From Cetorhinus maximus (lineage: Eukaryota), in assembly GCF_964194155.1 (NCBI RefSeq), contig NC_135893.1, forward strand, positions 22,630,001 through 22,694,000: a DNA stretch of 64,000 nt, in the 5' to 3' direction. Numbering within the stretch: the first letter of the stretch is position 1; each line of letters begins with the position of its first letter. Shown here piece after piece: positions 3,685 through 52,382 of this stretch. Below the pieces are notes generated by a model. That model saw only the letters and a program-made list of their open reading frames with translations, did not search any database and was not told where the DNA came from. Both the position numbers and the translations under genes were made by a program.

Positions 3685-3844
3685 ACATTTTCATCTTACA
3701 TTATCTTTACATTTTCATCTTTGTTCTGTCTCATTGTCTCTTAACTTATTCCAGTGTTTCTGCCTGCAACTAATGGTTCCTATAGTCCGTTCCAAGTGTT
3801 GAGCTCACTCTGCATGAAGAACTATCTTCTGATATCAGTCCTAA

Positions 3845-5075: not shown

Positions 5076-5744
5076 GACAATTGAGTTAGTTGTTGCCCCT
5101 CCGATTCTAGCCTCTTGTACATGCTCCCCCCTTTCCTTTGCCCTATTGGTGATCATGCTCAGAAATTTTCTTCCTAAATACCTCTGCCTCTTGAACTTCC
5201 TTTAAGATACTCCTTTAGACTCTCTGAACAAGCTTATGGTCACTCCAGATAACCCTTTCTTTGGGCTGTACATCCATCCCCCACCCATTTGGTTATACCT
5301 GATTTTGTTCTTGAATTTCCTTGTTATAAGGTAATTTTGTCACTCCCCTGCCAAGGTTTACACAGCGCTTTGGATGAACAGTGAATATGTTTTTTGTACC
5401 ACCTCAGAGAGAAATCAATCCATATACCATCTTGGCCAAACGTGTTGGTGAAACTAATTGGAGTTGTTTTCCCTAGCTAGCAATTGCTAAATGTAAGCAT
5501 GATGCTAAAAGCCCGATTTTTAAATATAATACTTTTACTACAGTACATCTTGTGATGCAGAAACTTTAGTTTTTAGGATTGTTATAATTTTATTTCAGTC
5601 CAGAAAAGATGTCAAATTAAACCACAACCAACCCTCTTTGCTTCCTGTTAGGTCTCAATAGGAAGGTTGGGAACCTGAGATCACACTCTGGTTCTCCGGG
5701 GACCTCTTTCAGTGTTGCAACAGGCTGTAGTGACAAGTTGGCTG

Positions 5745-5977
5745 GTGCTGATTGGTTGGTTTTGAGAAGAGGCGGTGGTTGACTTTACAAATTGAAGAAT
5801 TTTCGCGTTTAAAAAGTGTTGGGACTCGAAACCTAAAAATAAATAGTAAACTCGATGATAATATTAATAAAAAGCGAGGAGAGCGACGGGCGGGGGAATT
5901 GCAGTTGCTAGGGGGCGGTGGGGTGTTTCCGGTTCCGGCTCCGTGTCCCCGGTTCCGGTCTCTGTGTCCGGCTGGAA
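5745..5977 (+). promoter_or_regulatory. ddost CpG-rich promoter/5'UTR
   Basis: ATTGG near 5751, TTTCGCG (E2F-like) near 5801, GGGCGG boxes near 5888 and 5913, three TTCCGG ETS cores in 5927-5956. Confidence 0.6.
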
Positions 5978-6140
5978 ATGGTGGTGGGTCTGAGCCAGAG
6001 TGGAATGGGGGTTTTGGGGACCTGGGTTCTTCTGCTCTTCTCCCTCCTTCCTGTGGCTGAGGGGGCCGGACGGACGCTGGTGCTTCTGGAGAACATCAAC
6101 ATGAAGGAGACGCACTCCATGTTCTTCAGGAGCCTAACAG
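5978..6140 (+). CDS. ddost: DDOST exon 1 (signal peptide)
   Basis: MVVGLSQSGMGVLGTWVLLLFSLLPVAEGAGRTLVLLENINMKETHSMFFRSLT; donor CAG|GTGGGA. The start could alternatively be the second ATG. Confidence 0.9.
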
Positions 6141-11419: not shown

Positions 11420-12680
11420 ACATCTTCCCAAATTCTATATGTTCTGGAATGGTTCCTGTAGATTGGAAGGTAGCAAATATAACCCCACTATTTAAGAAAG
11501 GAGGGAGAGAGAAAATGGGGAACTACAGACCTGTTAGCCTGACATTCGTAGTAGGGAAAATGCTGGAATGTATAACAAAGGATGTCATAACTGGACACTG
11601 AAAATAATGGTAGGATTGGGCAGCGTCAACATGGATTTATGAAAGGGAAATCATGATTGACCAGCCTGTTAAAGTATTTTGAGGATGTAACTAGCAGAAT
11701 AGATAAGTGGGAACCAGTGGATGTGAAATAAAAACAAAATTCTGGGAAAAACTCAGCAGGTCTGGCAGCATCTGTGGAGAGAGAAACGGAGTTCAAGTTT
11801 TGAGTCTGTTGACTCTTCAGAGCTAAAGAGAAGTAGGAATGGTAGATGTGGTCCATTTAGATTTTCAGAAAGCTTTCAATAATGTTCCACATAGGCTAGT
11901 AAACAAAATTAGAGCACATGAGATGGGGGTAATATACTGACATTGATTGAGAATTAGTTAACAGACAGAACAGAGGAGGAATAAACATGTCATTCTCAGG
12001 TTGGCAGGCTGACAGAATAGTGGGGTACCGCAAGGATCAGTGCTTGGGCTCCATCTATTCTCAATACATATCAATGATTTGGATATGGGGACCAAATGTA
12101 ATATTTCCAAGTTTGCTGATGACAAAATTAGGTGGGAGTGTGAGCTCTGAGGAAGATGCAAAGAGGCTTCAAGGGGACTTAGAAAAGGCTAAGTGAATAG
12201 GCAAAAAAAACGCACCTGGATCATCATGTGCAGTTTTGGTCTCCCCACCCAAGGAAGGAAATACCTCTCATAAAAGAAGTGCAATAAAGGTTTACCAGAC
12301 TGATTCCTGGGATGGCAGCATTGTCCCCTGAGGAGAGATTGAGGAGACTGGGCCTGTATTCTCTACAGTTTGGAAGCATGAGAGGTGATCTCATTGAAGC
12401 ATACAAAATTCTTACAGGGCTCGACAGGGTAGATATGGATAGGATGTTTCCCCTGGCTGGAGGTGGGGAATCGAACCAGGGGACACAGTCTCAGAATAAT
12501 TTGGGACCAGATGAGGAGGACTTTCTTTACTCAGAGGGTGGTGAATCTTTGAAATTCTGTACCCCACAGGGCAGTGGAGGCTCAGTTATTGAGCATGTTT
12601 AAGACTGAGATCTTGATTTCTAGTTACTAAAGACATCAAGAGATATGGGGATAGTGCGGGAAAACGACATTGAGGTAGAA
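11420..12680 (+). mobile_element. Older CR1 LINE (RT fragment) hosting two nested insertions; its 3' tail resumes at about 14016-14085
   Basis: VPVDWKVANITPLFKKG...NYRPVSLT, QHGFMKG, DFQKAF, FADD; frameshifted. Confidence 0.9.
11725..11840 (-). mobile_element. Penelope terminal-repeat-derived short element nested in CR1
   Basis: GAAAAACTCAGCAGGTCTGGCAGCATC shared with 1712-1739; flanked by GTGGATGTG / GTAGATGTG. Confidence 0.75.
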
Positions 12681-12682
12681 GA

Positions 12683-14013
12683 ATACTTGGTATTGGTAAA
12701 GTGCATGGTAAAATCGGGCAAAGTCAGCATGGTTTCATCAAGGGGAGGTCATGTCTGACAAATCTGTTAGAATTCTTTGAGGAGGTAATGAGTAGGTTAG
12801 ACAAAGGAGAGCCAATGGATGTTATCTACTTGGACTTCCAGAAGGCCTTTGACAAGGTGCCACACAGGAGGCTGCTCAGTAAGATAAGAGCCCATGGTGT
12901 TAGAGGCAAGGTACTAGCATGGATAGAAGATTGGCTGTCTGGCAGGAGGCAGAGAGTGGGGATAAGGGGGTCCTTCTCAGGATGGCGGCCGGTGACTAGT
13001 GGAGTTCCGCAGGGGTCAGTGTTGGGAGCACAACTTTTCACTTTATACATTAATGATCTAGATGAAGGAACTGAGGGCATCCTGGATAAGTTTGCAGATG
13101 ATACAAAGATAGGTGGAGGGACAGATAGTATTGAGGAGGTGGGGAGGCTGCAGAAGGATTTGGACAGGTTAGGAGAATGGGCAAGGAAGTGGCAGATGGA
13201 ATACAATGTGGGGAAGTGTGAGGTCATGCACTTTGGTAGGAAGAATAGTGGCATAGACTACTTTCTAAATGGGGAGAGAATTCAGAAATCTGGAGTGCAA
13301 AGGGACTTGGGAGTCCTAGTCCAGGATTCTCTTAAGGTTAACTTGCAGGTTGAGTCGGTAGTTAGGAAGGCAAATGCAATGTTGGCAATTATTTCGAGAG
13401 GACTAGAATATAAAAGCAGGGATGTGCTGCTGAGGCTTTATAAAGCTCTGGTCAGACCACATTTAGAATATTGTGAGCAATTTTGGGCCCTGTATCTCAG
13501 GAAGGATGTTCTGGCCCTGGAGAGGGTCCAGAGGAAGTTCACGACAACGATTCCAGGAATGAAAGGCTTAACATATGAGGAACGTTTGAGGATTCTGGGT
13601 CTATACTCGATGGAGTTTAGAAGGATGAGGGGGGGATCTGATTGAAACTTACAGAATACTGAGAGGCCTGGATAGAGTGGACGTGGGGAAGATGTTTCCA
13701 TTAGTAGGAGAGACTAGGACCCGAGGGCACAGCCTCAGAGTAAAGGGAAGAGCTTTTAGAACAGAGATGAGGAGAAACTTCTTTAGCCAGAAAGTGGTGA
13801 ATCTATGGAATTCATTGCCACAGAAGGCTGTGGAGGCCAGGTCATTGAGTGTATTTAAGACCGAGATAGATAGGTTCTTGATTGGTAAGGGGATCAAAGG
13901 TTACGGGGAGAAGGCGGGAGAATGGGGTTGAGAAACTTATCAGCCATGATTGAATGGCAGAGCAGACTCGATGGGCCGAATGGCCTAATTTCTGCTCCTA
14001 TGTCTTATGGTCT
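12683..14013 (+). mobile_element. Younger 5'-truncated CR1 LINE (RT + 3'UTR), shark HER1-type tail
   Basis: ORF 12701-13645: [37 protein letters not shown]. Frameshift at the G-run near 13630 continues into 13677-13931. Tail GGGCCGAATGGCCT...TATGTCTTATGGTCT. Confidence 0.95.
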
Positions 14014-21398: not shown

Positions 21399-24300
21399 GG
21401 GGAGCAAAGGCATAGTGGTATTGTCACTGGACAAGTAATCCAGAGACCCAGGGTAATGCTCTGGGGACCCGGGTTCGAATCCCACCACGACATATGGTGG
21501 AATTTGAATTAAATAAAAACCTGGAATTAAAAGTCTAACGTCGATTGTTGTAAAAACTCATCTGGTTCACTAATGTCCTTTAGGGAAGGAAATCTGTCGT
21601 CCTTACCTGGCCTGGCCTACACGTGACTCATGGTTGACTCTTAAATGCCCTCTGAAATGGCCTAGCAAGCCACTCTGTTGTAACAAACCGCTACAAAGTC
21701 ACAGAAAAGGATGAAACCGGATGGATCACCCTGTATCGACCTAGGCACCGGGAACAACAACGGCAATCTCAGCCATGTCGACTCTGCAAAGTCCTCCTTA
21801 CTAACATCTGGGGGTTAGTGCCAAAATTGGGAGAGCTGTCTCATAGACTAGTCAAGCAACAGCCTGACATAGTCACTCTCACAGAATCACACCTTACAGA
21901 TAATGTCCTAGACTCCTCCACCACCACCACCACCATCTCTGGGTATGTCCTGTCCCATCGGCAGGACAGGCCCAGCAGAGGTGGTGGTATACAGTCGGGA
22001 GGGAGTTGCCCTGAGAGTCCTCAACATCGACTCTGGACCCCATGAAGTCTCATGGCATGAAATCAAATATGGGCAAGGAAACCTGCCGATTACCACGTAC
22101 TGCCCTCCCTCAGCTAATGAATCAGTGCTCCTCAATTTTGAACACCACGGAGGAAACACTGAGGGTGGCAAGGCTGCAGAATGTTCTCTGGGTGGGGGAC
22201 TACAATGTTCATCACCGAGTGGCTTGGTAGAACCACTACTGACAAGCTGGCTGTGTCCTAAATGACATCGCTACTAGACTGGGTCTGCGGTAGATGGTGA
22301 GGGAATCAACAAGAGAGAAAAACATATTGATCTCATCCTCACCAACCTGCCTGTCACAGATGCATCTGTCCATGACAGTATCGGTAAGAGTGGCCATCGC
22401 ACAGTCGTTGTGGAGACGAACTCCCACCTTCACATTGAGGATACTCTCCATCGTGTTGTGTGGCACAACCACTGTGCTAAATGGGATAGATTTCGAACAG
22501 ATCTAGCAACTCGAGACTGGGCATTCATGAGGCACTGTGGGCCATCAGCAGCAGCAGAATTGTACTCGAACACAATCTGTAACCTTGTGGTCCGGCATAT
22601 TCCCCACTCCACCATTACCATTAAGCCAGGGGATCAACCCTGGTTCAATGAAGAGTGCAGGAGGGCATACTAGGAGCAGCACCAGGCGTACCTAAAAATG
22701 AGGTGTCAACCTGGTGAAGCTATAATACAGGACTACTTGTGTGCCAAACAGCATAAGCAGCAAGTGATAGAGCTCAGCGATCCCACAATCAACGGACCAG
22801 ATCTAAGCTCGGCAGTACAGCACATCCAGCCGTGAATGGTGGTGGACAATTAAACAATTCACTGGAGGAGGAGGAGGAGGCTCCACAAATATCCCCATCT
22901 TCAATGATGGAGGAACTGAGCACATCAGTGCAAAAGTTAAGGCTGAAGCATTTGCTACGATCTTCAGCCAGAGGTGCCTAGTGGATGATCTATCTCAGCT
23001 TCCTCCAGAGGCCCCCAGCATCACAGATGCCAGTCTTCAACCAGTTAGATTCACTTCGTGATATCAAGAAACGGCTGAAAGCACTGATACTGCAAAGGCT
23101 ATGGTCCCTGACAATATTCCAGCAAGAGTACTGAAGACTTGTGCTCCAGAACTTGCCACACCCGTAGCCAAGCTGTTCCAGTACAGCTACAAGACTGACA
23201 TCGAACTGGCTATTTGGAAAATTGCTCAGGTATGTCATGTAAACAAAATGCAGGGCAAATCCAATCCGGCCAATTACCGCCCTATCAATCCATTCTCGAT
23301 CAGCAGTAAAGTATTGGAATGGGTCATCAACAGTGCTATCAAGCAACATTTGCTTAGCAATAACATGCTCACCAACGCCCAGTTTGGGTTCCGCCAGGGC
23401 CACTCAGCTCCTGATCTCATTACAACCTTGGTTCAAACATGGACAAAAGATCTGAACTCCTGAGGTGAGGTGAGAGTGACTGCCCTTGACATTAAGGCTG
23501 CATTTGACTAAGTGTGGAATCAAGGAGCCCTAGCAAAACTGGAGTCAATGGGAATCGGGGAAAACTCTCCACTGGTTGGAGTGATACCTAGCACAAAGGA
23601 AGATGGTTGTGGTTGTTGGTCAGTCGTCTCAGCTCCAGGACATCACTGCAGGAGTCCCTCAGGATAGTGTCCTTTGCCCAACCATCTTCAGCTGCTTCAT
23701 CAATGACCTTCCTTCCATCATAAGGTCAGAAATGGGGATGTTCACTGATGATTGCACAATGTTCAGCACCATTCGCGACTCCTCAGATACTGAAGCAGTC
23801 CATGTCCAAATGCAGCAAGACCTGAACAATATCCAGGCTTGGGCTGACAAGTGGCAAGTAACATTCGTGCCACACAAGTGTCAGGCAATGACCATCTCCA
23901 ACAAGAGATAATCCAGTCATCACTCCTTGATGTTCAATGGCATTACCATCACTGAATCTCCCACTATCACCATCCTGAGGGTTACTATTGACCAGAAACT
24001 GAACTGGACTAGCCCTATAAATACTGTGGCTACAAGAGCAGGTCAGAGGCTAGGGATTTTGTGACTAGTAACTCACCTCCTGACTCCTGAAAGCCTGTCC
24101 TCCATCTACAAGGTGCAACTCAGGAGTGTGATGGAATATTCTTGACTTGCCTGGATGAGTGCAGCTCCCACAACACTCAAGAAGCTTGACACCATCCAGG
24201 ACAAAGCAGCCCACTTGATTGGCACCCCATCCACAAACCTTCACTTCCTCCATCTCTGACACACAGTAGCAGCAGTGTATACCATCTACAAGATGGACTG

Positions 24301-24633
24301 CAGGAATTCACCAAGGCTCCTTCGACAGCACCTTCCAATCCCACGACCACTACCATCTAGAAGGACAGTACAAGGGGCAGCAGATTAATGGGAACACCAC
24401 CACCTGGAAGTTCCCATCCAAGTCACACCATCCTGACTTGGAAATATATCGCTGTTCCTTCACTGTTGCTGAGTCAAAATCCTGGAACTCCCTTCTTAAC
24501 AACACTGTGGGCGTACCTACACAACATCGACTGCAGCAGTTCAAGAAGGCAGCTCACCACCACCTTCTCAAGGGCAACTAGGGGTGGGTGACAAATGCTG
24601 GCCCAGCCAGCGAAGCCCATAATCCCATGAATG
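21399..24633 (+). mobile_element. Apparently full-length, decayed CR1/L2-group LINE with a tRNA-derived 5' head, APE endonuclease and RT, no ORF1
   Basis: A box GGCATAGTGG 21409-21418, B box GGTTCGAATCC 21472-21482. EN motifs NIWGL..KLGEL...PDIVTLTESHL, GDYNVH. RT motifs PDNIPARVLK, NYRPI, QFGFRQG, GVPQDSVLCP, MFTDD. Multiple stops and frameshifts. Confidence 0.88.
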
Positions 24634-29649: not shown

Positions 29650-30279
29650 TGACCCTGGAACCTTCTGCCCCTAGTGGCCCAGTACCCTGGATTGTTCAAA
29701 GCAAGTTATAATAGAAAATGTACATTTTCATGTTGCCAAAAGTTTTCAAAATGTCAAATACAGATGCATGAACATTGTAACCACAATTGGTTTGTTTGAT
29801 TTAATCAATGTTAAGGCTGAGTGATTTAGCTGTGACTTGAAAACATGAATATTCACAATGATTAGATTCAAAACTAGCTTTCTAGCTGATTCAAAAGTAA
29901 TTCAATTTCTGGACAACACAGACCTTCAGGGAAGAGGACAAAATGTTTCTTTAAATAAATAAAATAAGGGTGTAATTCTTAAATTGTGCTTCATCAGGGA
30001 TTTAATTAATTGGAAGGAAAATAAAGAGTCCTGATTGTCTGCTGCATCTGGCTTTGAGCAAATATCTAGGAATTTAAATAAATTCTAGTTACCAAGTTGA
30101 CACTAAACTAACACCCAGGAGCCTTTTCTTTTAGATTGTGGGCTCATTTCTGAAAGCAAGGATATATTTTCCTGAAGTCACCATCAGTGGATTTGGACAG
30201 TTAGGCTACAGTAATTCTAACTCGGATTTGGGGGGGATATTGTTAAAAGTACTGAATGTATTTCCTCACCAAGATGGCA

Positions 30280-30506
30280 GTGGGACAGCGACATGTACGC
30301 CTGCTTTGCGGCGGTGCGCGGCTGGTTTTGCGACAGTGGCTGGTTTGCGGCGCTGCGGTTAGGCGGATTGTGGAGCGCGGAGTTGGTGTGCAGTAGTGTT
30401 GGAGTCCTCGCGTTGGGCCTCGATCGAGGGCCGGGTTTCGGTGCTGGCCCCGGATCCTGAAGTCGCTCTGTGCCGGCTTTTTGGTGCTGGGCAGTCTCTT
30501 GCCGCC
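30280..30506 (+). promoter_or_regulatory. ddi2 CpG-island promoter/5'UTR
   Basis: High CpG density, repeated GGCTGGTTT(T)GCG units, and GCCGCCATG Kozak context. Confidence 0.65.
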
Positions 30507-30644
30507 ATGTTGCTCACCGTTTACTGCGTGCGGCGCGACTTGAGCGAGATCACCTTCACCCTGCAGGTGAATGGCGGCATGCAGCTGGAGACTTTCCGGG
30601 CGCTGTGTGAAATGGAGAGCAGTATCCCCGCGGCAGAGAGCCAG
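30507..30644 (+). CDS. ddi2: DDI2 exon 1 (UBL)
   Basis: [46 protein letters not shown]; donor CAG|GTGAGA. Confidence 0.96.
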
Positions 30645-31329
30645 GTGAGAGCAGGAGGGACATGTACAGGCTTAAATATACTGCCACACCCGGGTATATA
30701 CCAGAATACACACACTAGCACACAACATTATATACAATCAGCCCCGTTCGTGGTTCTATATATATATGCAACTCTACGTAATTATATGCAACCACACCCA
30801 TATATAGTGTGATATGAACCCCCGCAGCTGAATCTGTCAACTGGGGTATTCGCACTAGAACCATTTCTGTATACATCTGGTGGCAAGTATATGAATACTG
30901 AAGTGTAAACTCTGATTCTGGACACATAAACCCCAGGCTATATATGCCTAAATAAGTCAATACACAGATCGGATCCTATATAACATTGGAGTGTGTTCTC
31001 TATTTCTTCTTCTCCCCCGCCCCCCGGAATGAACTATATACTTATACTCAATTCTAGATATCTAGATTGTTTAAGCTTTGCTTGTACACCTGGACTGAAT
31101 TCTATGCTCAGTCATTTCTGTATATCCCCCAAATGTGCTTTATTCATAAAATATTTAAAGCTTATTCCAAAACATTTCAAATTGGACATTATGGAAAGTA
31201 TTCTGCATAGAGCATATTGTACTCTGAGGTGCCTCAATACAATTGTGATACGTGTGATATTTTTCATATTCAATGACAAGTGTACAGCCCAAGGAGTTCT
31301 ACAATGTTACAAGCCTCTTGGTGCACTAT

Positions 31330-31880
31330 GGCTGAAGGGCCTTAGAAGGTGGCCTTTTCCCACCAGCCGCGTCTTTGCGGCGGCTGCCCCAAGCTTTAGT
31401 GCATCCCTCAGGATGTTGTCCTGGACCTTGGAATGTGCCAGCCTGCAGCACTTGGTTGTGGACAACTCTTTGCACTGGAAGACCAAAGAGTATGTTTCAC
31501 CAAGTTGACGATCCTTCAGCAGCAACTGGTGTTTGTCTCAGTACACATACTCTTGAGTACTAAAAACACAGGGTGGCGGTGGGGTCTTATATATCACGCA
31601 GGGAGTCCCTGAGTTGCTTGTCAACATTGTCAGCATTGGCTAGTAATGGTAGAGGTTCCAATTTTCTTTCCATCACATGGCTAACCAGGAGTTTCTGCTG
31701 CTCCAACTGCCTGCTTTTGTCATGTGTTGGAAGGATTTGCAGGTTGATACTCAACCTCTTTGGCCCCATTATGATCCCACCTTCCTTGGACATTGACTCC
31801 TGGGTGGGGCTCAAACCCAGAGCTTCTGGCTCAGAGGCAGGCTTGCTACCCACTGTGCCACAGAACCCCCTCAAAACAGG
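31330..31880 (-). mobile_element. Tx1/L1-group LINE fragments
   Basis: Minus ORF LVFQCKELSTTKCCRLAHSKVQDNILRDALKLGAAAAK resembles the C-terminus of fish Tx1-like ORF2. Confidence 0.6.
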
Positions 31881-31883
31881 GTA

Positions 31884-32712
31884 CAGTAAGCCCTCAGTTA
31901 AAGTTGTAGTTGCATTCCTGAAAAATACAACTTTAAGCAATTCAAAATTTCCTATTAAAACCAATATAAAAACTAGAGTTGGGTTCTGTAGGACCTTTGT
32001 CATCAGGGAAAAAACATTATACCCTGTAAGCTGAAATACATTACAGTGCTAAATAAAATAAGTTTTAAAATAAAATAAATGTAAAAATTGAAATATGCTA
32101 ACTTTCTACTTATATCCCCCACTCACTGCCTTTCCTGCTCACTGCCATTACTCCTTGCCAAACCTCCTGCTCGCCACACATCTGACTCCCTGACTCTCCC
32201 CGTCGCTGCAGACCCTTCCACTTGCTGACCCTCCATTTCACGGCCTCTGCCACTCCCTGACCACTGCAGTTGCTGCCAACACTTCGGTTTGTGACTTCAG
32301 CTGCTCCTTGACCCTCCCATTTGGTGCAGACCTCTCCTCGCTGAAACAGCCAGCCCCCACCTCTCCCGCTCGCTGCTTCCCCCTCCTGAACCCTCACTAT
32401 GAGCAAGGGCTCTGGAGATGAATGGCGAGAGGCAAGAAGAGTAGCGACTTGCAGGAGGTAAGCCGTGAGCTGGAGAGGCAGTGAGAGGGAGGGTCAGAGA
32501 GCAGCAGAGACCGCAAACTGAAGGGTCAGCAGCGAGAGGAAGGATTGGGAGCAGCAGAGGCAGTTCCAAAATGGTGGAGAATGAGTCGCATGGCCCTACA
32601 TTGGACCCAGTGCAAAACGACTTTAAAATAAAACTTGCAATGCTAAATGAGAATACGGGCCCCATAAACTGACCGAGTTTAAAGTGAAACGACTTAAAAG
32701 GGGGACTAATGG
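31884..32712. mobile_element. Tc1/mariner (Tigger-like) non-autonomous element
   Basis: TA-flanked imperfect TIRs CAGTAAGCCCTCAGTTAAAGTTG / CGACTTAAAAGGGGGACTAATG. Confidence 0.45.
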
Positions 32713-35986: not shown

Positions 35987-36125
35987 ATAATCTTTGCAGA
36001 GAGGCCATTGACTGATGATCGGCAGACACTGACAGCGTATGGACTGAAAGATGGTGATGTACTGGTATTGCGACAGTTGGATAGACCACCGGTGCAGCCT
36101 AGTCTACCACTCCCAGGTGTATCAG
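35987..36125 (+). CDS. ddi2: DDI2 exon 2 (alternative in-frame donor at 36116)
   Basis: IIFAERPLTDDRQTLTAYGLKDGDVLVLRQLDRPPVQPSLPLP(GVS); donor CAG|GTGAGA. Confidence 0.9.
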
Positions 36126-37780: not shown

Positions 37781-38044
37781 GACTTCCCAGGATTGATTTC
37801 AGTGGTATCTCAGTGCCTGGGTCAGTGGGGCCTGGAACTCCTGCATCTGGAGTAGCTAATCAGCAACCACCAAAGCCAACTCCCAGTAGCTCTACTGCTT
37901 CCCCTCCCCCTGTTCCAGCTCCGCACAGCTTGGAAAATAATCCTACCTTACTGCGGGACATGCTGTTGGCCAACCCACACGAGCTCTCACTGTTGAAGGA
38001 GCGAAATCCTCCATTAGCTGAGGCACTTCTTAGCGGAGATCTTG
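37781..38044 (+). CDS. ddi2: DDI2 exon 3 (HDD start)
   Basis: LPRIDFSGISVPG...NPTLLRDMLLANPHELSLLKERNPPLAEALLSGDL. Confidence 0.95.
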
Positions 38045-39298: not shown

Positions 39299-39425
39299 AT
39301 AAGTTTACAAGAGTGTTGCGAGAGCAGCAGTTGGAACGAGCACGGCGAGAACAGGAGCGGATCCGACTTCTAAATGCTGACCCCTTTGACCTGGAGGCAC
39401 AGGCCAAAATTGAGGAAGACATCAG
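39299..39425 (+). CDS. ddi2: DDI2 exon 4
   Basis: [43 protein letters not shown]. Confidence 0.95.
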
Positions 39426-40454: not shown

Positions 40455-40582
40455 GCAGCAGAACATTGAGGAGAACATGACAATTGCAATGGAAGAATCA
40501 CCGGAGAGCTTTGGTCAGGTGGTAATGCTCTACATCAATTGCAAGGTTAATGGGATGCCAGTCAAAGCATTTGTGGATTCAG
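40455..40582 (+). CDS. ddi2: DDI2 exon 5 (protease domain, catalytic Asp)
   Basis: [42 protein letters not shown](G). Confidence 0.96.
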
Positions 40583-41179: not shown

Positions 41180-41308
41180 GAGCACAGATGACAATCATGA
41201 GCCAGGCATGTGCTGAGAGGTGCAACATCATGCGCTTGGTTGATAGGCGGTGGGCGGGAATCGCCAAAGGTGTTGGAACACAGAAAATCATTGGCAGAGT
41301 TCACTTGG
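41180..41308 (+). CDS. ddi2: DDI2 exon 6
   Basis: [43 protein letters not shown]. Confidence 0.96.
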
Positions 41309-42379: not shown

Positions 42380-42483
42380 CCCAGGTTCAGATTGAAGGTG
42401 ACTTCCTCCCCTGCTCTTTCTCTCTCCTGGAAGACCAGCCAATGGATATGTTGCTTGGACTCGACATGCTCAAAAGGCACCAG
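42380..42483 (+). CDS. ddi2: DDI2 exon 7
   Basis: [35 protein letters not shown]. Confidence 0.96.
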
Positions 42484-42594: not shown

Positions 42595-44300
42595 CATACG
42601 CCATGTCCCAGACACCTCCATCTGGCAGGTCAGCCCCAGCAGAGGTGGCAGCACAGTGGTATACAGTCAGGAGGGAGTTGCCCTGGCAATAACCTGCTCA
42701 CTGACGCCCAGTTTGGGTTCTGCCAGGGCCACTCAGCTCCTGACCTCATTACAGCCTTGGTTCAAACATGGACAAAAGAGCTGAACTCCCAAGGTGAGGT
42801 GAGTTGACTGCCTTTGACATCAAGGCCTCATTTGACCGAGTGTGACATCAAGGGAGCCCTAGCAGAACTGGAGTCAATGGGAATCGGGGGGGTGAAAACT
42901 CTCCACTGGTTGGAGTCATACCTAGCAGAAAAGAAGATGGTTGTGGTTGTTGGTCAATCATCTCAGTTCCAGGACATTAGGAATGCAGGAATTCCTCGGG
43001 GTAGTATCCTAGGCCTAACCATCTTTCAGCTGCTTCATCAATGACCTTCCTTCCATCGTAAAGTCGGAAATGGGGATGTTCGCTGATGATTGCACAAAGC
43101 TCAGCACCATTCGCGACTCCTCAGACACTGAAGCAGTCCCATGTCCAAATGCAGCAAGACCTGGACAATATCCCGGCTTGGGCTGACAAGTGGCAAGTAG
43201 CATTCGCTTCACACAAGTGCCAGGCAATGACCATCTCCAACAAGAGAGAATCTAACCATCGAACACATTCAATGGCATTACCATCGCTGAATCCCCCACT
43301 ATGATCATTCACCAAGGCTCCTTAGACTGCACCTTCCAAAACCACGACCACTACTATCTAGAAAAACAAGGGAAGCAGATAGGTAGAAATACCACCACCT
43401 GGAAGTTTGCCCCTAAGCCACTTACCATCCTGACTTGGCAATATATCACTGTTCCTTCACTGTTGCTGGGTCAAAATCCTGGAACTCCCTAACAGCACTG
43501 CGGGTGTGCCTACACCACATGGACTGCAGCAGTTCAAGAGGGCAGCTCACAACCGCCTTCTCAAGAGCAACTAGGCATGGGCAATAAATGTTGGCCCAGC
43601 CGGTGAAGCTCACATCCTGTGAATTAATAAAAAAAAATTTTTAAATCCTGGGGGTTACCATTGACCAGAAACTGAACTGGACTAGCCATATAAATACTGT
43701 GGCGACAAGAGCAGGTCAGAGGCTAGGAATCCTGCGGCGAGTAACTCACCTCCTGACTCCCCAAAGCCTGTCCATCATCAACCAGGCACAAATCAGGAGT
43801 GTGATGGAATACCCTCCATTTGTCTGGATGAGTGCAGCTCCAACAACACTCAAGAAGCTTGACACCATCAAGGACAAAGCAGCCTGCTGGATTGGCACCC
43901 CATCCACAAACATTCACTCCCTCCACCATTGACAAACAGTGGCAGCAGTGTGTACCATCTACAAGGTGCACTGCAGAAACACACCAAGGCTCCTTCGGCA
44001 GCACCTTCCAAACCCACGACTGCTACCATCTAGAAGGACAAGTACAGCAGATAAATGGGAACCCACTACCTGGAAGTTCCCCTCCAAGCCACTCACCATC
44101 CTGACTTGCAAATATATTGCTATTCTTTCACAGTTGCTGGGTCAAAATCCTGCAACTCCCTCCCTAACAGCACTGTGGATATACCAACACCACAGGGACT
44201 GCAGAGGTTCAAGAAGGCAGCTCACCACCACCTTCTCGAGGGCAATTAGGGATGGGCAATAAATGCTGGCCTAGCCAGCCATGCCCACATCTTATAAATT
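42595..44300 (+). mobile_element. Internally deleted CR1/L2-group LINE copy with a nested 3' fragment of the same family (about 43285-43640)
   Basis: Colinear with 21900-22010 and then 23358-24630; two 3' tails (about 43570-43635 and 44240-44300). Confidence 0.85.
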
Positions 44301-44311
44301 AATTTAGAAAA

Positions 44312-44407
44312 ACTAGGCCATTCATACTCGGCCATTTGTTCTGATCGTATGCCATTCACTAGGCCATTCATACTAGGCCATTAATTCTGATAATACTAGG
44401 CCATTCA
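44312..44407. repeat. Short minisatellite of (ACTA)GGCCATT(CA) units
   Basis: Six GCCATT cores in about 95 bp directly after a LINE tail. Confidence 0.7.
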
Positions 44408-45432: not shown

Positions 45433-45622
45433 TGTTCAATTGACCTGAAACGCAATGTGTTAGTTATCGGCACCACAGGAACAGAGACCCGCTTTTTATC
45501 TGAAGCAGAGCTACCGGAGTGTGCCAGGTTGGCATATGGTGTTCCACGAGATGATCTTCATCCTGAGGAGCTGGCAGATGCAGAACTGGCCGAGGCACTA
45601 CACAGATCGGCAGAGGAATCTG
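45433..45622 (+). CDS. ddi2: DDI2 exon 8 (end of protease, UIM)
   Basis: [36 protein letters not shown]...[16 protein letters not shown]; phase-1 donor G|GTAAAT. Confidence 0.96.
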
Positions 45623-46653
45623 GTAAATTTGCGACAAATCTTTTCCTATTACAGAATTGTGGTAATGTAGATTTAGTTGTGGAATGCAGTAATTTAAAAT
45701 TTGGTAACCAAGTGAACTACAGGATTATTTAAGGCAGAATGTCCCCCAACCCAGCTACCCAAATTCATGAGCAGTTAGTCTGTAGTAAAGGTTTCATTGA
45801 TAGATCCTGGGTGATGTCCTGGCTTCATGATTGTTCAGTATCAGGAAGGTAAGTAGAAATTTTTTCTTTTCTGTCTTTTCCAAAGCTTACTCAAAATTTT
45901 TGTGCCGTTGTTCCTTTGGCTTCATCAAGGTGGACCTTTGCTTGGGTGTAATCCCATCGGCACTGGCAGTCTCCGCTATCTCTCAAAGTGGCAAACTTTA
46001 GTTTGAGATTAAATAGTGAACATTCACAGGTCTTTGACCACAAAGGGGATCAAAGGTGAATCCAATCCTACTCCCACCCATGCATGACAAGGCTGGAGCT
46101 ACTGTATAGTGATCAAGAGCGGGAATCCTGTCTAATTTCCTCTCAGGGGCTAATTTAAGTGACCCTACTATAGCTACAGATGAAACTAATTTAGTCAGCA
46201 TGCACTGGAGATTGGATTTAGCACCTTCTGCTCTGTGTGGCTCAGTGCTACGTCAGTCAGAGCCCTTAGCCATTCATAATTAAAACCACATAGATTCACA
46301 CTATCTCCTGGGTGATGTGTGGGTCTATTCTCTTCCCTATGCCATTTTGTTATGTTTCAGTGTGTCTATAACATCATGCATCTATTTATAATTAACAAGA
46401 CATTGATATCTTCACACCAGTGCTTTTCATTTGGTCAGTCTAACCTCCATGTCAGCTCCAGAAGCTGGGGGTGTTAGTGGAGCGAATACTGTCTAATAAT
46501 ATCGCTCATACTTATGCTGTGATATATTTGTGTGGAATGTTAATCTGTTTGATATCCATGGTGATTCGTAATAGTATATGCATGTTGCATGCGTCCATTG
46601 CCTAATCAAGTTTGCTGTTTGGTTTGTTTTGGGTGTTTTTTTTATTCTAACAG

Positions 46654-46670
46654 GACGCCGGCATCACTGA
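46654..46670 (+). CDS. ddi2: DDI2 exon 9 coding part (GRRHH*); the exon extends to a donor at 46713
   Basis: Strong acceptor TTTTTTTTATTCTAACAG; G|GA CGC CGG CAT CAC TGA parallels the 5-residue human tail ERQKP; donor CAG|GTATTT. Confidence 0.85.
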
Positions 46671-47351
46671 TGCATGTTGCACTTTGCTGCCCCTGAAGAT
46701 GATCAGAGCCCAGGTATTTAATGTTCTTTTACTTTTAAATGACTTATTGTGGCACAACAGCCAAACGTACACACAGGAAATACTTGCATCAAACTACATG
46801 GTTGGCTTCACTGCATTGCCCTGAGGACCTGGATGGCCCTCATGACCAGCTGTGGCATAAGTGAACCACGCCACTAACTCGGCACGTGTACAATTCTTGG
46901 CTTCCTATCTGTTCACTATAATTTTTCCGATTGAACAGTTGGATCCCAGTGAATGCTTCAGTTTTTTAGCCTTTTTAACTCAACTGAGGCATTCCCTATT
47001 CACAAGCTAACTGGGTATTTCATTAGGCTACCCACTCACTCTGCAGTCTTAATAGAGTCGTATGGTATAGAAGGAGGTCATTTACCCCATTGTACATAAT
47101 TGCTTCTCTTTGAAAGAGCAATCCAATTAGTTCCACTCCCCTGCACTATTCCCATTGTCCTGCAGTTTTTTTTTCCTTTTCAAGTATCTATCTAATTCCT
47201 TTTTGGAAGTTACTATTGAATCTCCCTTTGAGGGGGTACATTCTTGATGGTAAAGTAAATTCCCCCTCTGGTTCTTTCGCCAGTTGTCTCAAATCTGTGT
47301 CCTCTGGCCATCAACCTTCCTGCTTGTGTAAACAGTTTCTTCTTTTATTTA

Positions 47352-47739
47352 TTTTTTATTCTTTCATGGGATGTGGGCGACACTGGCAAGGCCAGCACTT
47401 GTTGCCCATCCCTAATTGCCCCTGAACTGAGTGGCCTGCAGTGCCACTTGGAGTGCAGTTAAGAGTTACTGTGGGTTTGGAGTCACATGTAGACCAAACC
47501 AGATAAGGATGGCAGATTTCCTTCCCTAAAGGACATAAGTGAACCAGATGGGTTTTTACGACAATCGACAATGGTTTCACGGTCGCCATTACCGAAACTA
47601 ACTTTTAATTCCAGATTTATTAATTGAATTTAAATTCCACCAGCTGCCGTGGTGATATTTGAATCCTTTGTTCCTAGAACATTAGCCTGGGCCTCTGGTT
47701 ACTAGTCCGTAACATTACCACCACGCCACCATCTCCCCC
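47352..47739 (-). mobile_element. Full-length tRNA-derived SINE inserted in a CR1 fragment (about 47050-47830)
   Basis: Head GGTGGCGTGGTGG...GGATTCAAAT, body TTTAGGGAAGGAAATCTGCC, tail GGGGCAATTAGGGATGGGC...CCCATGAAAGAATAAAAAA. Confidence 0.85.
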
Positions 47740-48240
47740 TATTTATTCCATCAAAGCCCTTCATAATTTTGAACACCCTTATTAAATCTTCCCCTTACTT
47801 CATCTGCTCTAAGGAGAGCAACCCCTGCTCACCAGTTCCTGTATAAAGTTAGCAGAGATGCATTAAGTTAACGCACTGTGAAAACTTCTGATTTAATGCC
47901 TGGTTTGTGACTCTGTTGCTAGTCAAGAAATTACATAACTTGCTTGCCACATTTTAGGACACTTTACATTGTTTGCAGCATTACAAAGGAGTGATTGCTG
48001 TGTAACACCCTGCTAACAAGTTGTTTACATCCTCCAATAAGGTGCATCCTGCAATAAGTAATACATAATTTAATGATACATACTTAAACTCACTTTTAAG
48101 TTTCAATGCAGCTTACACTCGCCACATAACTGTTAGTCTTCAGGGAATGATGGCCTAGAGTAAGTTAGAGCAGTGTTGCTCACTAACTACAAGTATCTGA
48201 TTGAACTAAGCACCATGCATTTGAATTTTCCTATTACAAT

Positions 48241-48966
48241 GGGCAGGATTTTTCCTGCGGGCTTCTGAACTCTGCCGTTAGTCTCAAATTTGGGTCAGAA
48301 GCCCACACTCCGGGGGAAATGGTCACTAGTTGTGGTTTTCCCTAGAGCAGTCAGTTAAGGGCCAGAGGTTGGGCTCACTATCCAATTAAGGACAAAATGG
48401 GTAGGCTCTCTAAGCTGGAGGGCCAATAAGAGACCTTCCTGCTTGGAAGTAGCAGAAGATTGTGATGACAGGTACTTGAGGGAGAGGGAACATCAAAATG
48501 GAGGATCCTGTCTCCAACATTTTAAAATTTAAACCAAGAAATGGCTTTTGCAACCAGGCCACCACTGTAGGGGGGCAGCCCTCTAAAGGGCAGCCAGTGG
48601 CTGCTGCTGCAACCAGGCAGGCATGGAATGTCTCTCAGCCTGCCTGGAGCACTGGCCCTCTTGTCTACCACCAAGGGGCCATCTCCAGACAGCTAAACTG
48701 GCCCATGCAGCCTTCGGGAACCTGGAGGCTGACTGGAAAACCCCAGTTGACTTCCTTTAAGTGGCCGTTACCAAGTTGGATCAGCCACCCGCTGCTTACG
48801 GCCCTGTGGCCTCCTCTCCCCCCCACCCCAACCTCTGCCATTTCACCTCCATGAAAATGGCCCAGGTGCCAAACAGCTAGGGAAACCAGCATGCTAGCCA
48901 GCAGTTCTGTTTCTAACACCCACCTGCCTGCGATCGCAGCCCTAGTGGGCACTAAAAACCAAGCCC
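48241..48966. mobile_element. MITE-like element (GGGC termini, Harbinger-like)
   Basis: Imperfect TIRs GGGCAGGATTTTT / AAAAACCAAGCCC; similar ends to 60941-61620. Confidence 0.5.
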
Positions 48967-49250
48967 ATAGTCTTCCTCAGTTCAGTGAGGTCATCTTTTT
49001 TTCAGTTCTGAGCTCTCCAGTTACTATAACTGAACTTCTATTGTTCAATGAAATGCCTGTACCAAGGTTGAGCCATCTATAAAAGTGGTCATTAACATTG
49101 TCCACTTGATGCTGGTTTGGAAATGAATAGAAACGATAGAACGACAGGATAGTGCATTGCAACTGCTGTGTAATTTTGCTATAAGATGCTCTGGAATAAG
49201 ATGTATATATACCTGTAATCTAGGACTCAATTTCCTATTTTTTGTTTTAG

Positions 49251-51289
49251 GAAAAGAAAATGGCAAAACTACCTCATTGGAAAGCCCTTCATTACCAGCA
49301 CCTCATCATCTTCATCTCCCAGGTCCCATTACAAGAAGTGACCTATCTCAAGCCCCTAAAACCCAAAGTCAGTGGGACCGTTCACTTTCCGTCCCTGCTA
49401 GCCTTCCTTCACAAAACCAGAACAAGTTTGAACTTACAGGTGTAAAAAGCCTTCAGATCACTCCTGAGTGCATGGAAACACAGGCAGAAAAACAGGCACT
49501 GTCAGGATCATTGGACAATATATTGACTTCTCTGTCTCCTGATAATCTGTCTGCTCCTTCTCAGGCATCACTAGGGAAAAAGCACATACCACAGTGTGAA
49601 AGCATTAATTGCAGCTCACAAAACCTCTTGAAATATCCAACTTCAGATACAGATGATGAGTCTGTGCCAAAACATGTCTTGCCAGACATGAGTCCACATG
49701 AGGTTGGCATGGAAAAGGGTGGCATCACACAGGAAAACCATTCTCTTCTAAATTTTAGAACAAAATCCCAGCTGGAAAGCATAAACAAAGGAGATTTGGA
49801 GGAACCACCAATAAGAAAAGTTGGAGAGATTTCTTCAGCTGTACAACCAAATTGTGATCCTGTGCCTGATCTGGGTGTAGCTGACAGGTCAATCCAACCA
49901 CCCTCACCTGAACTGGCTTTTGCTGACAGTTCTTCTAACATGGATGAAATGCAACAGTCCACTGAAAGTGGAAAGGAGTTTAATGATCCAGACAGCCACA
50001 TACAGCAAGTCACTGAGCCATCAGACATGGACCTTGAAATAGCTGAAAAAGATCTATGTAGCTGTCAAAAGAGATTTGAGACTGATGGAAAACCACCATT
50101 TGATTCTTTAACTGGGAACATTGAATTCTGTGGTGCTGAAATTGTAAACTCTACTGAACAACAGGAAGAGGAAATTAGACATTCAGCATCAAAAAAGACA
50201 GAAAACAGTTGCCAAAAGGTGGGGAAAGTCCATATTTCAGATCAGGAATTTGAGGATGGACATGTAAGTTCAAACTCCTCTATTGCTCAGGTGGATATAC
50301 CCATTGAGTTTACTAGTGACTACGTGAGAGAAAAATCTGAAGTTGCTCTTGATGCTAATAAAAAGCATGAAGAGGTACATTTGTTTACCGAGATTAAACA
50401 GTCTACCTATCAGCAGGATCAGACATCAGATTCTGATTCACACTTCTCCCCCGTAGCTACTTTATTTAAATTGCATCGAGAGTTAGTCACCTCATGTCAG
50501 GATGCTTCCTTGAAGACATCAGCCAGTTCAGAGGACAACTATCAGTCATATGCAACAAATCAGGAAGAATGTGTTCAACCAATGGAAGTGTCTGAAGAAT
50601 GTTCAGATAATGATGCCCTGAACAGGATGTGTGTTAGCACAGAAATGGAATCTCTTGTTGTGGAAATGGAAAAAGAACCTTTGCTCACAGCTAATTCCGA
50701 AGCTTCTTCCAAAAGAGACAACAGTGTGGAATGCTCCAATGTATTTCCAGAAAAACTTACCTCAGACGTGCCACGAGTTGAATCTGAGGAGATTTTTATA
50801 CATGACGCAAAGGACAAGGCTACAGCTTTTATTATTGTGTCCAAGGATCTATCAAAGGAAATGGAAGTTTCGCCCCCTGAGGAATCATTGCAAACCCAAG
50901 AATTATCAGTAAAGAGTATGGTACATACACCTGACACTGCAGCAGGTGAAAACAGCCAGATGTCACAAAGTAGTGAGACACATTTGCAAGTGATGACAGA
51001 TAATGTAGTGTGTCCTTCAGAGGTCCCAGACGTTTCAGCTGCTCCAATGATATGGGAAGGGACTATGGAAGCAAACGTGAATCAGCCTGATGGACATTCT
51101 TTGGATAGCCCTCTAGGACTGCATTCTCCAGCTTTATCAACCCAGATTTTCCCAGCTGCAAATGTTGAACGAATAAGAAGATCAGGATTTACTCAGCAAG
51201 AAGCAGTCGAGGCCCTTGAACGTTTTCATGGCAATACAGATCTGGCTCTCCTGGTTCTCCTTGCAAGAAAAATTGTGGTTCCTATCTGA
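49251..51289 (+). CDS. rsc1a1: RSC1A1-like terminal exon of the ddi2 locus: long acidic Ser/Glu-rich region plus C-terminal UBA
   Basis: 2-kb uninterrupted ORF after acceptor TTTTTTGTTTTAG. C-terminus IFPAANVERIRRSGFTQQEAVEALERFHGNTDLALLVLLARKIVVPI matches the RSC1A1 UBA. Phase-1 start fits both the exon 8 and exon 9 donors. Confidence 0.9.
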
Positions 51290-52125
51290 AGCTGTCCAAC
51301 AAGAGTCTGTAGGACAGTAATAAGCTGGCACTGTTTCGACATTTGGGCCTACAAATGGGTATCTGTTGGTCGAAAGGAAGCGAGTTTCAGTCAGAATCAT
51401 TATTTTTGGATGTTGTTGGGAAAAACCTGTTTTATCTGTTGATATCATCTGTCACTGGCAAACTGGTTATTGTGGTCAAGTTTCAGCAACATTAGTATTT
51501 GATTTCAGTGCCATTCTGGAGTTACTACTTCACTCCGCAATATTCACTGGTAGCCCATAAGCCTACCAACCCAGCTCTATTTAAATATCAACCCTAATGC
51601 TGTTTAAACTGCCTATGATTTTTAAGTGAATATTCTCAAAGCTGGTTTGGCACAGCAAGGAGGAGGAAGGACAAAAGTAGCAGGTTTGAATCCTTGGAAG
51701 ATGATCTACGTGTACGTGCAGTATTCATGGTGGAATCATGTTAGATTTAAAATTTGCGCAAGGTCAGTAGTTGTCTACATTGGATTTGGGGGTTGCTTTA
51801 GGGTTTGGCTTAACCAGAGGGAGAAGTGGAAAGTCTCTATCATGTTTCCTCCATAAAGTTCATGTATCTCACCTTCTGAGAACACAAATTTTTAGAATTA
51901 TTTTACTCTTTTATAGCCTTTGTCAAATCTGACACAGCAACACCACCTCTGCTGGACATTTGTCACATTTGAGGCATATTCAGTATTCACAGTTGGTAAA
52001 AATTGTTTTATGAAGGTGTTTGTGCATTTTTTTTCTTAATTGACAGTAGTGATGTTGCTGTAATCTTCAATGGCTGCTTAGTGCAACCTCTGGTCTTTGT
52101 TTTTTCTCTTTTTTTAAACCAAATA

Positions 52126-52131
52126 ATTAAA
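52126..52131 (+). terminator. Possible polyadenylation signal for ddi2/rsc1a1-like transcript
   Basis: ATTAAA after a T-rich tract, with GT-rich TTGGTTTTGTGT downstream. Confidence 0.4.
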
Positions 52132-52382
52132 AAAAGTTATTGCCAAACAAAATATTGGTTTTGTGTCACCTGATGCGAGCATTTAAAAAGCTATCTGTAT
52201 GAAGAAGGCTAGAAATCTGAAGTGTTCTGACTTCTTGTCTGTAAAAGCTGATTTCAGCCAAAGATGCAATGATGAAGTAGTAGGTTAAGGTTCTGGAGGA
52301 TAGCAGATGGGAATAATGCACGATGAAAATCTTGATTCATCATTGAAACCTCTGAAACTATTACCGTCATAATCTGGACTCT

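Follow-up and report, generated by a model that had tools for sequence, protein, structure and literature searches.

In the 64,000-nucleotide (nt) window of the basking shark Cetorhinus maximus genome analysed here (contig NC_135893.1, positions 22,630,001 to 22,694,000, forward strand), the protease gene DDI2 is followed directly by the open reading frame (ORF) of RSC1A1, whose product is called RS1. Our analysis indicates that both very likely belong to one gene. Its exon 10, which carries the RS1 ORF, would be the ancestral last exon, exon 9 would be a stop cassette, and skipping of exon 9 would lead to a long DDI2 ending in a UBA. What is new here is how an annotated isoform is read, not the system itself; novelty is limited, since databases already contain the fused sequence. 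On proteasome failure, NRF1 is activated by the DDI2 protease, which has been proposed as a drug target. The vertebrate protein is taken to be UBA-less, the question being how it binds ubiquitin (PMC4962041, PMC9062259). A conserved UBA-bearing form would change this premise.

DDI2 of the window is a ten-exon gene on the + strand with its ATG at 30507, and every intron is GT-AG. Its parts are as follows.

30001..31000, no strand assigned: CpG-rich promoter and exon 1 region of DDI2, observed/expected CpG ratio (o/e) 0.81 and 0.69
30507..30644, + strand: coding exon 1 (ATG 30507), first half of the UBL
35987..36125, + strand: exon 2, remainder of the UBL, with two donors of equal phase (36116 and 36125)
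37781..38044, + strand: exon 3, Pro/Ser linker and start of the HDD
39299..39425, + strand: exon 4, HDD
40455..40582, + strand: exon 5, start of the retroviral-type protease, with the codon for the catalytic Asp (DSG) at 40576
41180..41308, + strand: exon 6, protease
42380..42483, + strand: exon 7, protease
45433..45622, + strand: exon 8 (190 nt), protease end and UIM-like LAEALHRS (45586-45609), ending in phase 1 (TCT G/gtaaat)
46654..46713, + strand: exon 9, stop cassette of 60 nt (ag/GA CGC CGG CAT CAC TGA), in-frame ATG at 46674
49251..51289, + strand: coding part of exon 10, the RSC1A1/RS1 ORF, in frame with exon 8; acceptor ttttgttttag/GA AAA GAA
51290..52152, + strand: shared 3' untranslated region (3' UTR), ATTAAA at 52126; its end is only weakly hinted at by contig ends

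Joining exon 8 to exon 9 adds the residues GRRHH and then a TGA (46668-46670), which lies 43 nt ahead of the next junction, and gives a protein of 408 or 411 amino acids (aa) and 45 kDa. Joining exon 8 to exon 10 gives 1082 or 1085 aa (119 kDa, isoelectric point (pI) 4.7) with a UBA at the end. The 3-residue difference in both products comes from the exon 2 donors, which are 9 nt apart; the later one (36125) is chosen in shark RefSeq models with extra VS/VT residues. The exon 10 frame, which is that of exon 8, is open for 678 codons from 49251 to the TGA at 51287-51289, and encodes a Ser/Glu/Asp-rich linker of ~630 aa (pI 4.5) and a 48-aa UBA. This translation agrees at 678/678 residues with a RefSeq protein labelled Cetorhinus maximus. 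The exon-by-exon translation bears out the preliminary description of this locus, made from the sequence alone, in the phase 1 end of exon 8, the 45622-49251 splice and the length of about 1085 aa. To be noted, the phase match of exon 8 to exon 10 taken alone is a 1-in-3 chance event. The D[ST]G signature of the Ddi1/DDI2 family is present as DSG in the translated exons, and LAEALHRS at 45586, after the protease, agrees with the LAxAxxxS type of UIM as defined in PMC4962041. In a Pfam scan of the sawshark orthologue P0005, ubiquitin, Ddi2_HDD and Asp_protease all score above the cut-off.

RNA evidence was taken from 4 of 20 listed runs, belonging to four studies; it consists of assembled contigs of related sharks, ~98% alike, whose RNA nature is presumed. 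The GT..AG joints 45622-46654 (exons 8-9) and 46713-49251 (exons 9-10) are found in all four runs, and one contig of 3901 nt contains exon 8, 60 further bases (exon 9) and exon 10 up to 52152. Since exon 10 is spliced to exon 9 in 4/4 runs, it is the last exon of DDI2 that contains the RSC1A1 ORF. The sole CpG-rich stretch within 29001-54000 is that of exon 1; between 48001 and 50000 CpG o/e is just 0.0-0.2, and no CpG island ahead of exon 10 was found by this measure. These joints, the long contig and the missing island support the earlier proposal that DDI2 and RSC1A1 are one transcription unit. The RSC1A1 orthologue itself is recognised by its location after DDI2, its single coding exon, a conserved helix and the UBA. 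The marks of an independent gene, namely its own promoter and a conserved start codon, were not found, and a minor promoter of non-CpG type could still exist. Contigs end at 52145-52152 in three of the four runs and at 52095 in the fourth, a weak hint for the 3' end.

The same runs contain other transcript forms. Contigs cross from exon 8 through intron 8 into exon 9 (45623-46682) in two of the four runs, and from intron 9 into exon 10 (48687-49278) in two of the four. Retention of intron 8 would stop the protein at 45732, 36 residues past the junction, and some fish and primate records have such alternative tails. The segment 45000-45366 is without cover in all four runs and introns 8 and 9 are partly covered; this was not used as evidence.

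The long form is widespread among jawed vertebrates. The protease end and UIM, used as a query, matched 258 proteins in the size range 599-1908 aa, of which 120 are listed; these were selected by length, are mostly gene models, include many close mammals and are partly redundant. They span chimaera, sharks, coelacanth, gar, sturgeon, teleosts, amphibians, reptiles, birds, platypus, marsupials and placentals. A UBA stands at the C-terminus in 118 of them, a T-T-S-type motif is present in 118 (exactly 10 residues past the UIM in 116), and the part after the UIM has 404-809 aa with a median of 630. Fused models with this junction exist in eight cartilaginous fish species. Independent support comes from cattle, whose curated record NP_001422309.1 ("isoform 2", 1021 aa) is the fused form, and from zebrafish. 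In the latter, a fused ORF of 914 aa is found on three Logan contigs (2922-3589 nt), alongside the 408-aa short form. The skip junction is thus present in the RNA of other vertebrates, through these contigs and through the published mouse and human measurements given below. The in-frame, UBA-bearing DDI2 that the preliminary description had proposed is supported by this junction, conserved from chimaera to primates. Its view of the locus as a special state retained in an early-branching jawed vertebrate does not hold, since gene models of both forms exist across fish, amphibians, reptiles, birds and mammals, and published measurements document skipping in mouse and human neurons.

The peptide at the junction is the following feature.

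49253..49300, + strand: conserved junction peptide with the TTS motif, located before the first in-frame Met codon in exon 10 (49472)

Residues 1-16 of exon 10 are identical in six of eight other cartilaginous fishes, with 15/16 and 12/16 in the other two. Over residues 1-73 the identity to these eight is 55-89%, versus 37-74% for residues 74-630, and the UBA is 75-94% identical to those of other cartilaginous fishes. The first in-frame Met of shark exon 10 is codon 74. Among the 118 listed records with the motif, the presumed start Met of RS1 follows it in 76 and is absent in 42; it is kept in placental mammals and birds and absent in, for example, sharks, fish, marsupials, hamster and tenrec. 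Judged by these alignments, what is kept at the junction is the frame and the peptide, and not the RS1 start codon. Constraint at the nucleotide level, such as splice enhancers, could contribute to the conservation. We are highly confident that this is one gene with a conserved in-frame skip form, and it is likely that the long protein is made and selected.

Published measurements show that this exon can be skipped. Under TDP-43 excess in mouse spinal cord, a 62-nt Ddi2 exon is skipped, with a percent spliced in (PSI) of 100 and 95.9 in controls and 42-64 in transgenics; the equivalent human exon in neurons has PSI values of 85.7/96.4/100 in controls and 28.6/12.5/60 under TDP-43 excess, and it is one of only two events common to mouse and human (PMC11163724). 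A second study reports skipping of "Ddi2 exon 9" at 2.5% in controls and 10.5% with TDP-43 (PMC12108026). The primers of PMC11163724 translate to ECARLA (exon 8) and VGSPTS (N-terminal part of rodent RS1), and their products are 222 nt for the skip and 284 nt for the full form. The skip product fits an in-frame join, since 222 is a multiple of three. From the mouse primers, the exon name and the exon size, the TDP-43-induced Ddi2 exon skip is the in-frame exon 8-10 junction. RSC1A1 is mentioned 0 times in the main texts of both papers, and the available portions of the two texts contain no mention of the gain of ~620 aa and a UBA by skipping. The splicing event measured in TDP-43 models would have an unrecognised protein consequence.

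Candidate regulatory elements are found at exon 9 of the shark gene.

46579..46591, + strand: two TGCATG (RBFOX-type) motifs in the TG-rich final part of the intron, 75 and 68 nt ahead of the exon 9 acceptor
46671, + strand: third TGCATG, within exon 9, next to the TGA

There are 17 TGCATG motifs on the + strand of the window, and their only cluster is the three within 93 nt at exon 9 (46579, 46586 and 46671); none lies within 200 nt of exons 1-8. In a post hoc test the cluster has a Poisson P of 5e-5, and 186 of 20000 dinucleotide shuffles of 260 nt reach three motifs. RBFOX bound upstream of an exon promotes its skipping (PMC5840707), and RBFOX control of exon 9 is a possibility that we hold as somewhat doubtful. 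The 150 nt before exon 9 contain 22 TG, the highest count among exons 2-10 (others 9-18; no statistical test), and this richness would be fitting for TDP-43 binding. Catshark and owl-monkey protein models, both mis-framed, read D-A-C across the exon 9 stop; these readings are compatible with a conserved stop-TGCATG, as no proof of it. In the stingray model P0008, the end of the intron ahead of exon 9 (46590-46653) is translated nearly as the window would read (NRVCC/NQVCC, CFFYPNR/CFFYSNR), which suggests conserved intronic sequence at this acceptor. A metagenome scan with exon 8 found seven invertebrate or protist-type loci and no vertebrate DNA.

Further evidence comes from the UBA and from the ancestry of the last exon.

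51149..51286, + strand: Ddi1-type UBA with the animal-type tail LLA[KR]xIxVP

The shark UBA alone reaches 20.1 bits with the Pfam UBA model, below the cut-off of 22.4, and as a single query against the PDB it gives weak matches, among which designed repeat proteins rank ahead of Ddi1 (E 0.096). A profile of 12 vertebrate UBAs places yeast Ddi1 (27.9 bits) and S. pombe Mud1 (22.6) on top, the next single domain being at or below 19.9; the 28.6 bits of NUB1 are the sum of two domains of 14.3 and 11.6. Together with the invertebrate gene structure described below, this profile comparison supports the relation to Ddi1 UBAs suggested earlier. The shark UBA also scores 38.1 bits against a profile of 120 invertebrate-type Ddi1 C-termini, for which the hits were unfiltered for the tail motif, though the query alignment was built from motif-bearing proteins. 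An earlier animal-UBA profile (43 bits) was discarded as circular, having been chosen on the tail motif. A profile of whole RS1 proteins had no match in the PDB. The ESM Atlas returned generic UBA clusters (under 0.9), which we treat as a lead only. In the AlphaFold model of sawshark P0005 the UBA is a confident three-helix bundle (helices 1039-1047, 1052-1061 and 1066-1077), with a predicted local distance difference test (pLDDT) score >90 over most of the domain.

An invertebrate-type genomic Ddi1 locus (L005) has the same exon arrangement. It contains a 187-nt exon that begins, in phase 0, at the same codon as shark exon 8 does and ends in phase 1 just past the UIM; after an intron of 200 nt comes the last exon, which encodes a short linker and the UBA. 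The invertebrate profile search gave 2932 matches, of which the best 120 were examined. Among these 120, a UIM pattern is found in 69, and 112 have an LxA[KR]S/T/A C-terminus resembling the vertebrate LLA[KR]xIxVP; the linker between UIM and UBA is 10-47 aa long (median 31), a short form also carried by a hemichordate and a sea cucumber. Ddi1 with the UIM beside the UBA occurs in hemichordate, echinoderm (sea cucumber), mollusc, arthropod and priapulid (P0229, P0230, P0231, P0379, P0436 and others). The UIM therefore did not replace the UBA, since both already coexist in invertebrates. From the L005 structure, the invertebrate linkers and the UBA ranking, we take the 8-10 splice as the ancestral path, with the linker expanded within the last exon and exon 9 added. 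Among the matches listed, none was identified as coming from lamprey, hagfish, lancelet or tunicate, so the linker expansion is dated only between the hemichordate/echinoderm outgroups and the jawed-vertebrate ancestor. The preliminary description was right in that the DDI2-RSC1A1 link had been noted before, in the single paper with this biological link among the open-access full texts searched (PMC4962041). The model there is a different one, in which no vertebrate has kept the UBA, RSC1A1 is a newly inserted gene and the UIM is the vertebrate replacement. Our data favour an expanded ancestral last exon with a stop cassette over this insertion.

A comparison with known systems shows both likenesses and differences. 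The short DDI2 of human and other vertebrates (PMC4962041, PMC9062259) has the same UBL-HDD-retroviral-type protease-UIM order, ~400 aa, and ends 3-5 residues past the exon 8 junction, whereas here the same gene encodes a second, UBA-bearing frame. RSC1A1/RS1, a regulator of SGLT1 trafficking handled as a separate protein in PMC7462918 and PMC11774587, likewise lies directly downstream of DDI2 with one coding exon and an acidic linker, and the shark and mammalian sequences can be aligned over its central LxELH helix and its C-terminal UBA. The difference is that here it is a spliced last exon without a conserved start codon; shark-mammal identity is just 22-25%. Yeast Ddi1, S. pombe Mud1 and invertebrate Ddi1 (Rngo-like) share the UBL-HDD-protease-UBA order and the best single-domain PDB match of the UBA, and invertebrate Ddi1 has the UIM, the phase-1 intron after it and the LxA[KR]S tail in common with the vertebrate long form. 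In contrast, their linker of 10-47 aa stands against 404-809 aa after the UIM in vertebrates, in which the UBA is also optional via the stop cassette. The fused models of RefSeq and UniRef ("protein DDI1 homolog 2 isoform X1", cattle NP_001422309.1) have the identical architecture and junction as annotation only; no paper interpreting or testing them was found in the open-access literature. The TDP-43 "skiptic" Ddi2/DDI2 exon agrees in the name exon 9, the 62 nt and the primer positions, and differs in having been published as aberrant loss of a constitutive exon (PMC11163724, PMC12108026).

A similar split is seen in models of one clam, Mya arenaria. Its DDI1-like X1 (509 aa) has a UIM, a linker and a UBA, while X2-X5 (376-391 aa) diverge right past the UIM and then stop; in these predicted models (P0232, P0358-P0361) one isoform continues to the UBA and four stop within 3-19 residues. 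This may reflect shared ancestry or convergence, and the choice with or without UBA past the UIM may be older than vertebrates.

The linker holds three conserved islands, which are the junction motif and the two following features.

49379..49396, + strand: RSxSxP motif, in 55 of the 120 listed long forms, degenerate in placental mammals
50447..50488, + strand: amphipathic LxELHxxL helix, here LFKLHREL, lying midway in the disordered linker and conserved in 119 of the 120 listed long forms

We take RSxSxP to be a motif of the 14-3-3 mode-I type. In the P0005 model the linker is disordered apart from a helix at 811-835. The protease is left unfolded in this monomer model (pLDDT <50), so the model is silent on contacts between linker and core.

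Several points weigh against our interpretation. The 8-10 joint is not among the 15 of 100 joints listed for the four runs of related sharks. This is no evidence of absence, since contigs drop rare variants; for this shark we infer exon 9 skipping, and rate it as fairly likely to be active. The longest RefSeq models of Cetorhinus and Carcharodon are 692-aa exon 9-10 products starting at the exon 9 ATG and not the fusion, and no human fused record was seen among the records listed. The 120 long records are not 120 independent observations, in view of the length selection, the many close mammals and gene models that can be propagated by homology. No protein-level evidence for the long form was found. 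The authors of PMC11163724 call the event aberrant skipping of a constitutive exon, skipping is low in control mouse and human samples, and the 222-nt skip product is one codon below the 225 nt expected from three other rodents. The TGCATG cluster was spotted after the fact, and its conservation beyond this shark rests only on mis-framed protein models. Finally, the canonical loop of UBAs in UBL-UBA shuttle factors is M-G-F. An S/A-G-F loop is found instead in 11 of the 12 aligned vertebrate UBAs and E-G-F in one, and with this loop and the score under the Pfam cut-off ubiquitin binding is not assured. We put useful ubiquitin binding at slightly below an even chance; the ligand may be another one.

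The strongest competing explanation also accepts one transcription unit. It holds that the second product of use is free RS1, which ribosomes would make from the mRNA that includes exon 9, either re-initiating behind the DDI2 stop or starting at a downstream ATG, and that the skip form is secondary. The ATG at 46674 is placed well for this, 4 nt behind the TGA and in frame with exon 10, and RefSeq has the 692-aa protein from it in two lamniform sharks. However, the length of exon 9 is not frame-locked (60 nt here, 62 nt in mouse, with a frame shift implied by the catshark and owl-monkey models), so this ATG is not conserved in frame, and it lies within a TGCATG motif. Also in favour of this explanation, the 8-9-10 form is the one seen in RNA, and a Met comes right after the junction motif in the 76 listed records (placental mammals and birds). 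We consider this explanation unlikely, and production of free RS1 in this way is compatible with that of the long protein. It is less probable still, and in our opinion improbable, that the switch is real in other vertebrates and vestigial in this shark lineage, with exon 9 always included. The junction peptide is identical at 16/16 positions to six other cartilaginous fishes and the UBA at 75-94%, the ORF is intact over 678 codons, and repressor-type motifs stand at exon 9. All this has to be set against the cluster examined, which holds no fused RefSeq model for Cetorhinus or Carcharodon, and the exon 8 contig, which runs unbranched through exon 9 in two of the four runs.

Alternatively, RSC1A1 may have been inserted between DDI2 and its UBA as a gene in its own right, having a promoter and start of its own, in which case skipping would be noise and the fused models artefacts. 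This is the published model (PMC4962041); RS1 has been studied as a free-standing regulator of SGLT1 (PMC7462918), RS1-only records of ~617 aa exist in many mammals, and baseline skipping is low. It is very improbable in view of the splicing of exon 10 to exon 9 in 4/4 runs, the missing upstream CpG island and the absence of the start Met in 42/118 motif-bearing listed records while phase and upstream peptide are kept. Furthermore, an invertebrate gene with the same intron and a single linker-UBA last exon makes a gene insertion unneeded, and UIM and UBA coexist in invertebrates (69 of the best 120, by pattern). Read-through of the exon 9 TGA (1102/1105 aa), which the 60-nt exon with its frame open on both sides save for the TGA would allow here, is hardly credible, given the 62-nt mouse exon, the 3n+1 length implied by the catshark model and a TGA-TGC stop context in place of CUAG, the read-through context.

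We therefore return to one gene with a stop cassette, for which the following course is proposed. Exon 10 would be the final exon that animal Ddi1 had ancestrally, made up of a short linker and the UBA, and this linker would have grown from ~30 to 400-800 disordered residues before the shark/bony fish split. Exon 9, a cassette of 60-64 nt, would add 3-5 residues and a stop. Its inclusion, the presumed default, would give the 45-kDa UBL-HDD-protease-UIM protein and leave the RS1 ORF in the 3' UTR. The stop is only 43 nt before the last junction, so by the 50-nt rule this mRNA should escape nonsense-mediated decay. Skipping would restore the ancestral phase-1 splice and give a UBL-HDD-protease-UIM-disordered region-UBA protein of ~110-120 kDa. 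It appears to be minor and regulated, at 0-14% in control neural samples of mouse and human and 36-87% under TDP-43 excess. Repressors at the exon 9 acceptor would drive it: TDP-43 on UG-rich sequence, as demonstrated in mammals, and possibly RBFOX on the three UGCAUG sites as a further one. Tissue- or stress-dependent repression of exon 9 could thus yield a protease with a tethered UBA. The long form is most likely a tethered Ddi1, in which a distant UBA and motifs of the linker (RSxSxP and the amphipathic helix) are added to the dimeric protease core and would change its substrate capture or location.

The shark gene dates the arrangement to the jawed-vertebrate ancestor or earlier and offers a cis-regulatory signature that can be read. 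In a wider proposal, which taken as a whole we regard as speculative and rather doubtful, jawed vertebrates never lost the Ddi1 UBA but put it under a splicing switch, and the TDP-43 skip would be an ancient switch, not damage. A large share of neuronal DDI2 would then become a ~115-kDa UBA-bearing protease with different handling of ubiquitin chains or NRF1, and part of the RS1 effects (nuclear shuttling, trans-Golgi location, knockout obesity) would be due to long DDI2 or a fragment of it. Rsc1a1 knockouts, probes and expression counts act on the last exon and 3' UTR of DDI2. A UBA-bearing vertebrate DDI2 is not described in the open-access full texts searched, and the available portions of PMC11424978, PMC11012796 and PMC13004010 contain nothing on the long form; the primary RS1 papers may hold transcript or band-size data. 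As a separate observation, Rsc1a1 is ~12-fold up in Rtl8a/b double-knockout brain (PMC11774587), which may be a changed Ddi2 isoform assignment if Rsc1a1 is the last Ddi2 exon.

Outside the DDI2 exons, the window contains several minor features. A degenerate retroelement, with a reverse transcriptase and then GIY-YIG, lies at 2170-3690 on the - strand, presumably a Penelope-like arrangement. Broken reverse-transcriptase fragments of long interspersed nuclear elements are present at 12674-13931 and 21656-24581. Related repeat pieces are found in intron 7 (43310-44312, two copies 672 nt apart) and intron 9 (~47340-47780, with very deep contig cover). Intron 1 has, counting both strands, three stretches of 153-174 aa free of stops (30984-32048) that overlap, have no Pfam match and are perhaps a decayed insertion. 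A CpG-rich patch at 5501-6000 (o/e 0.77) is possibly the promoter of a neighbouring gene.

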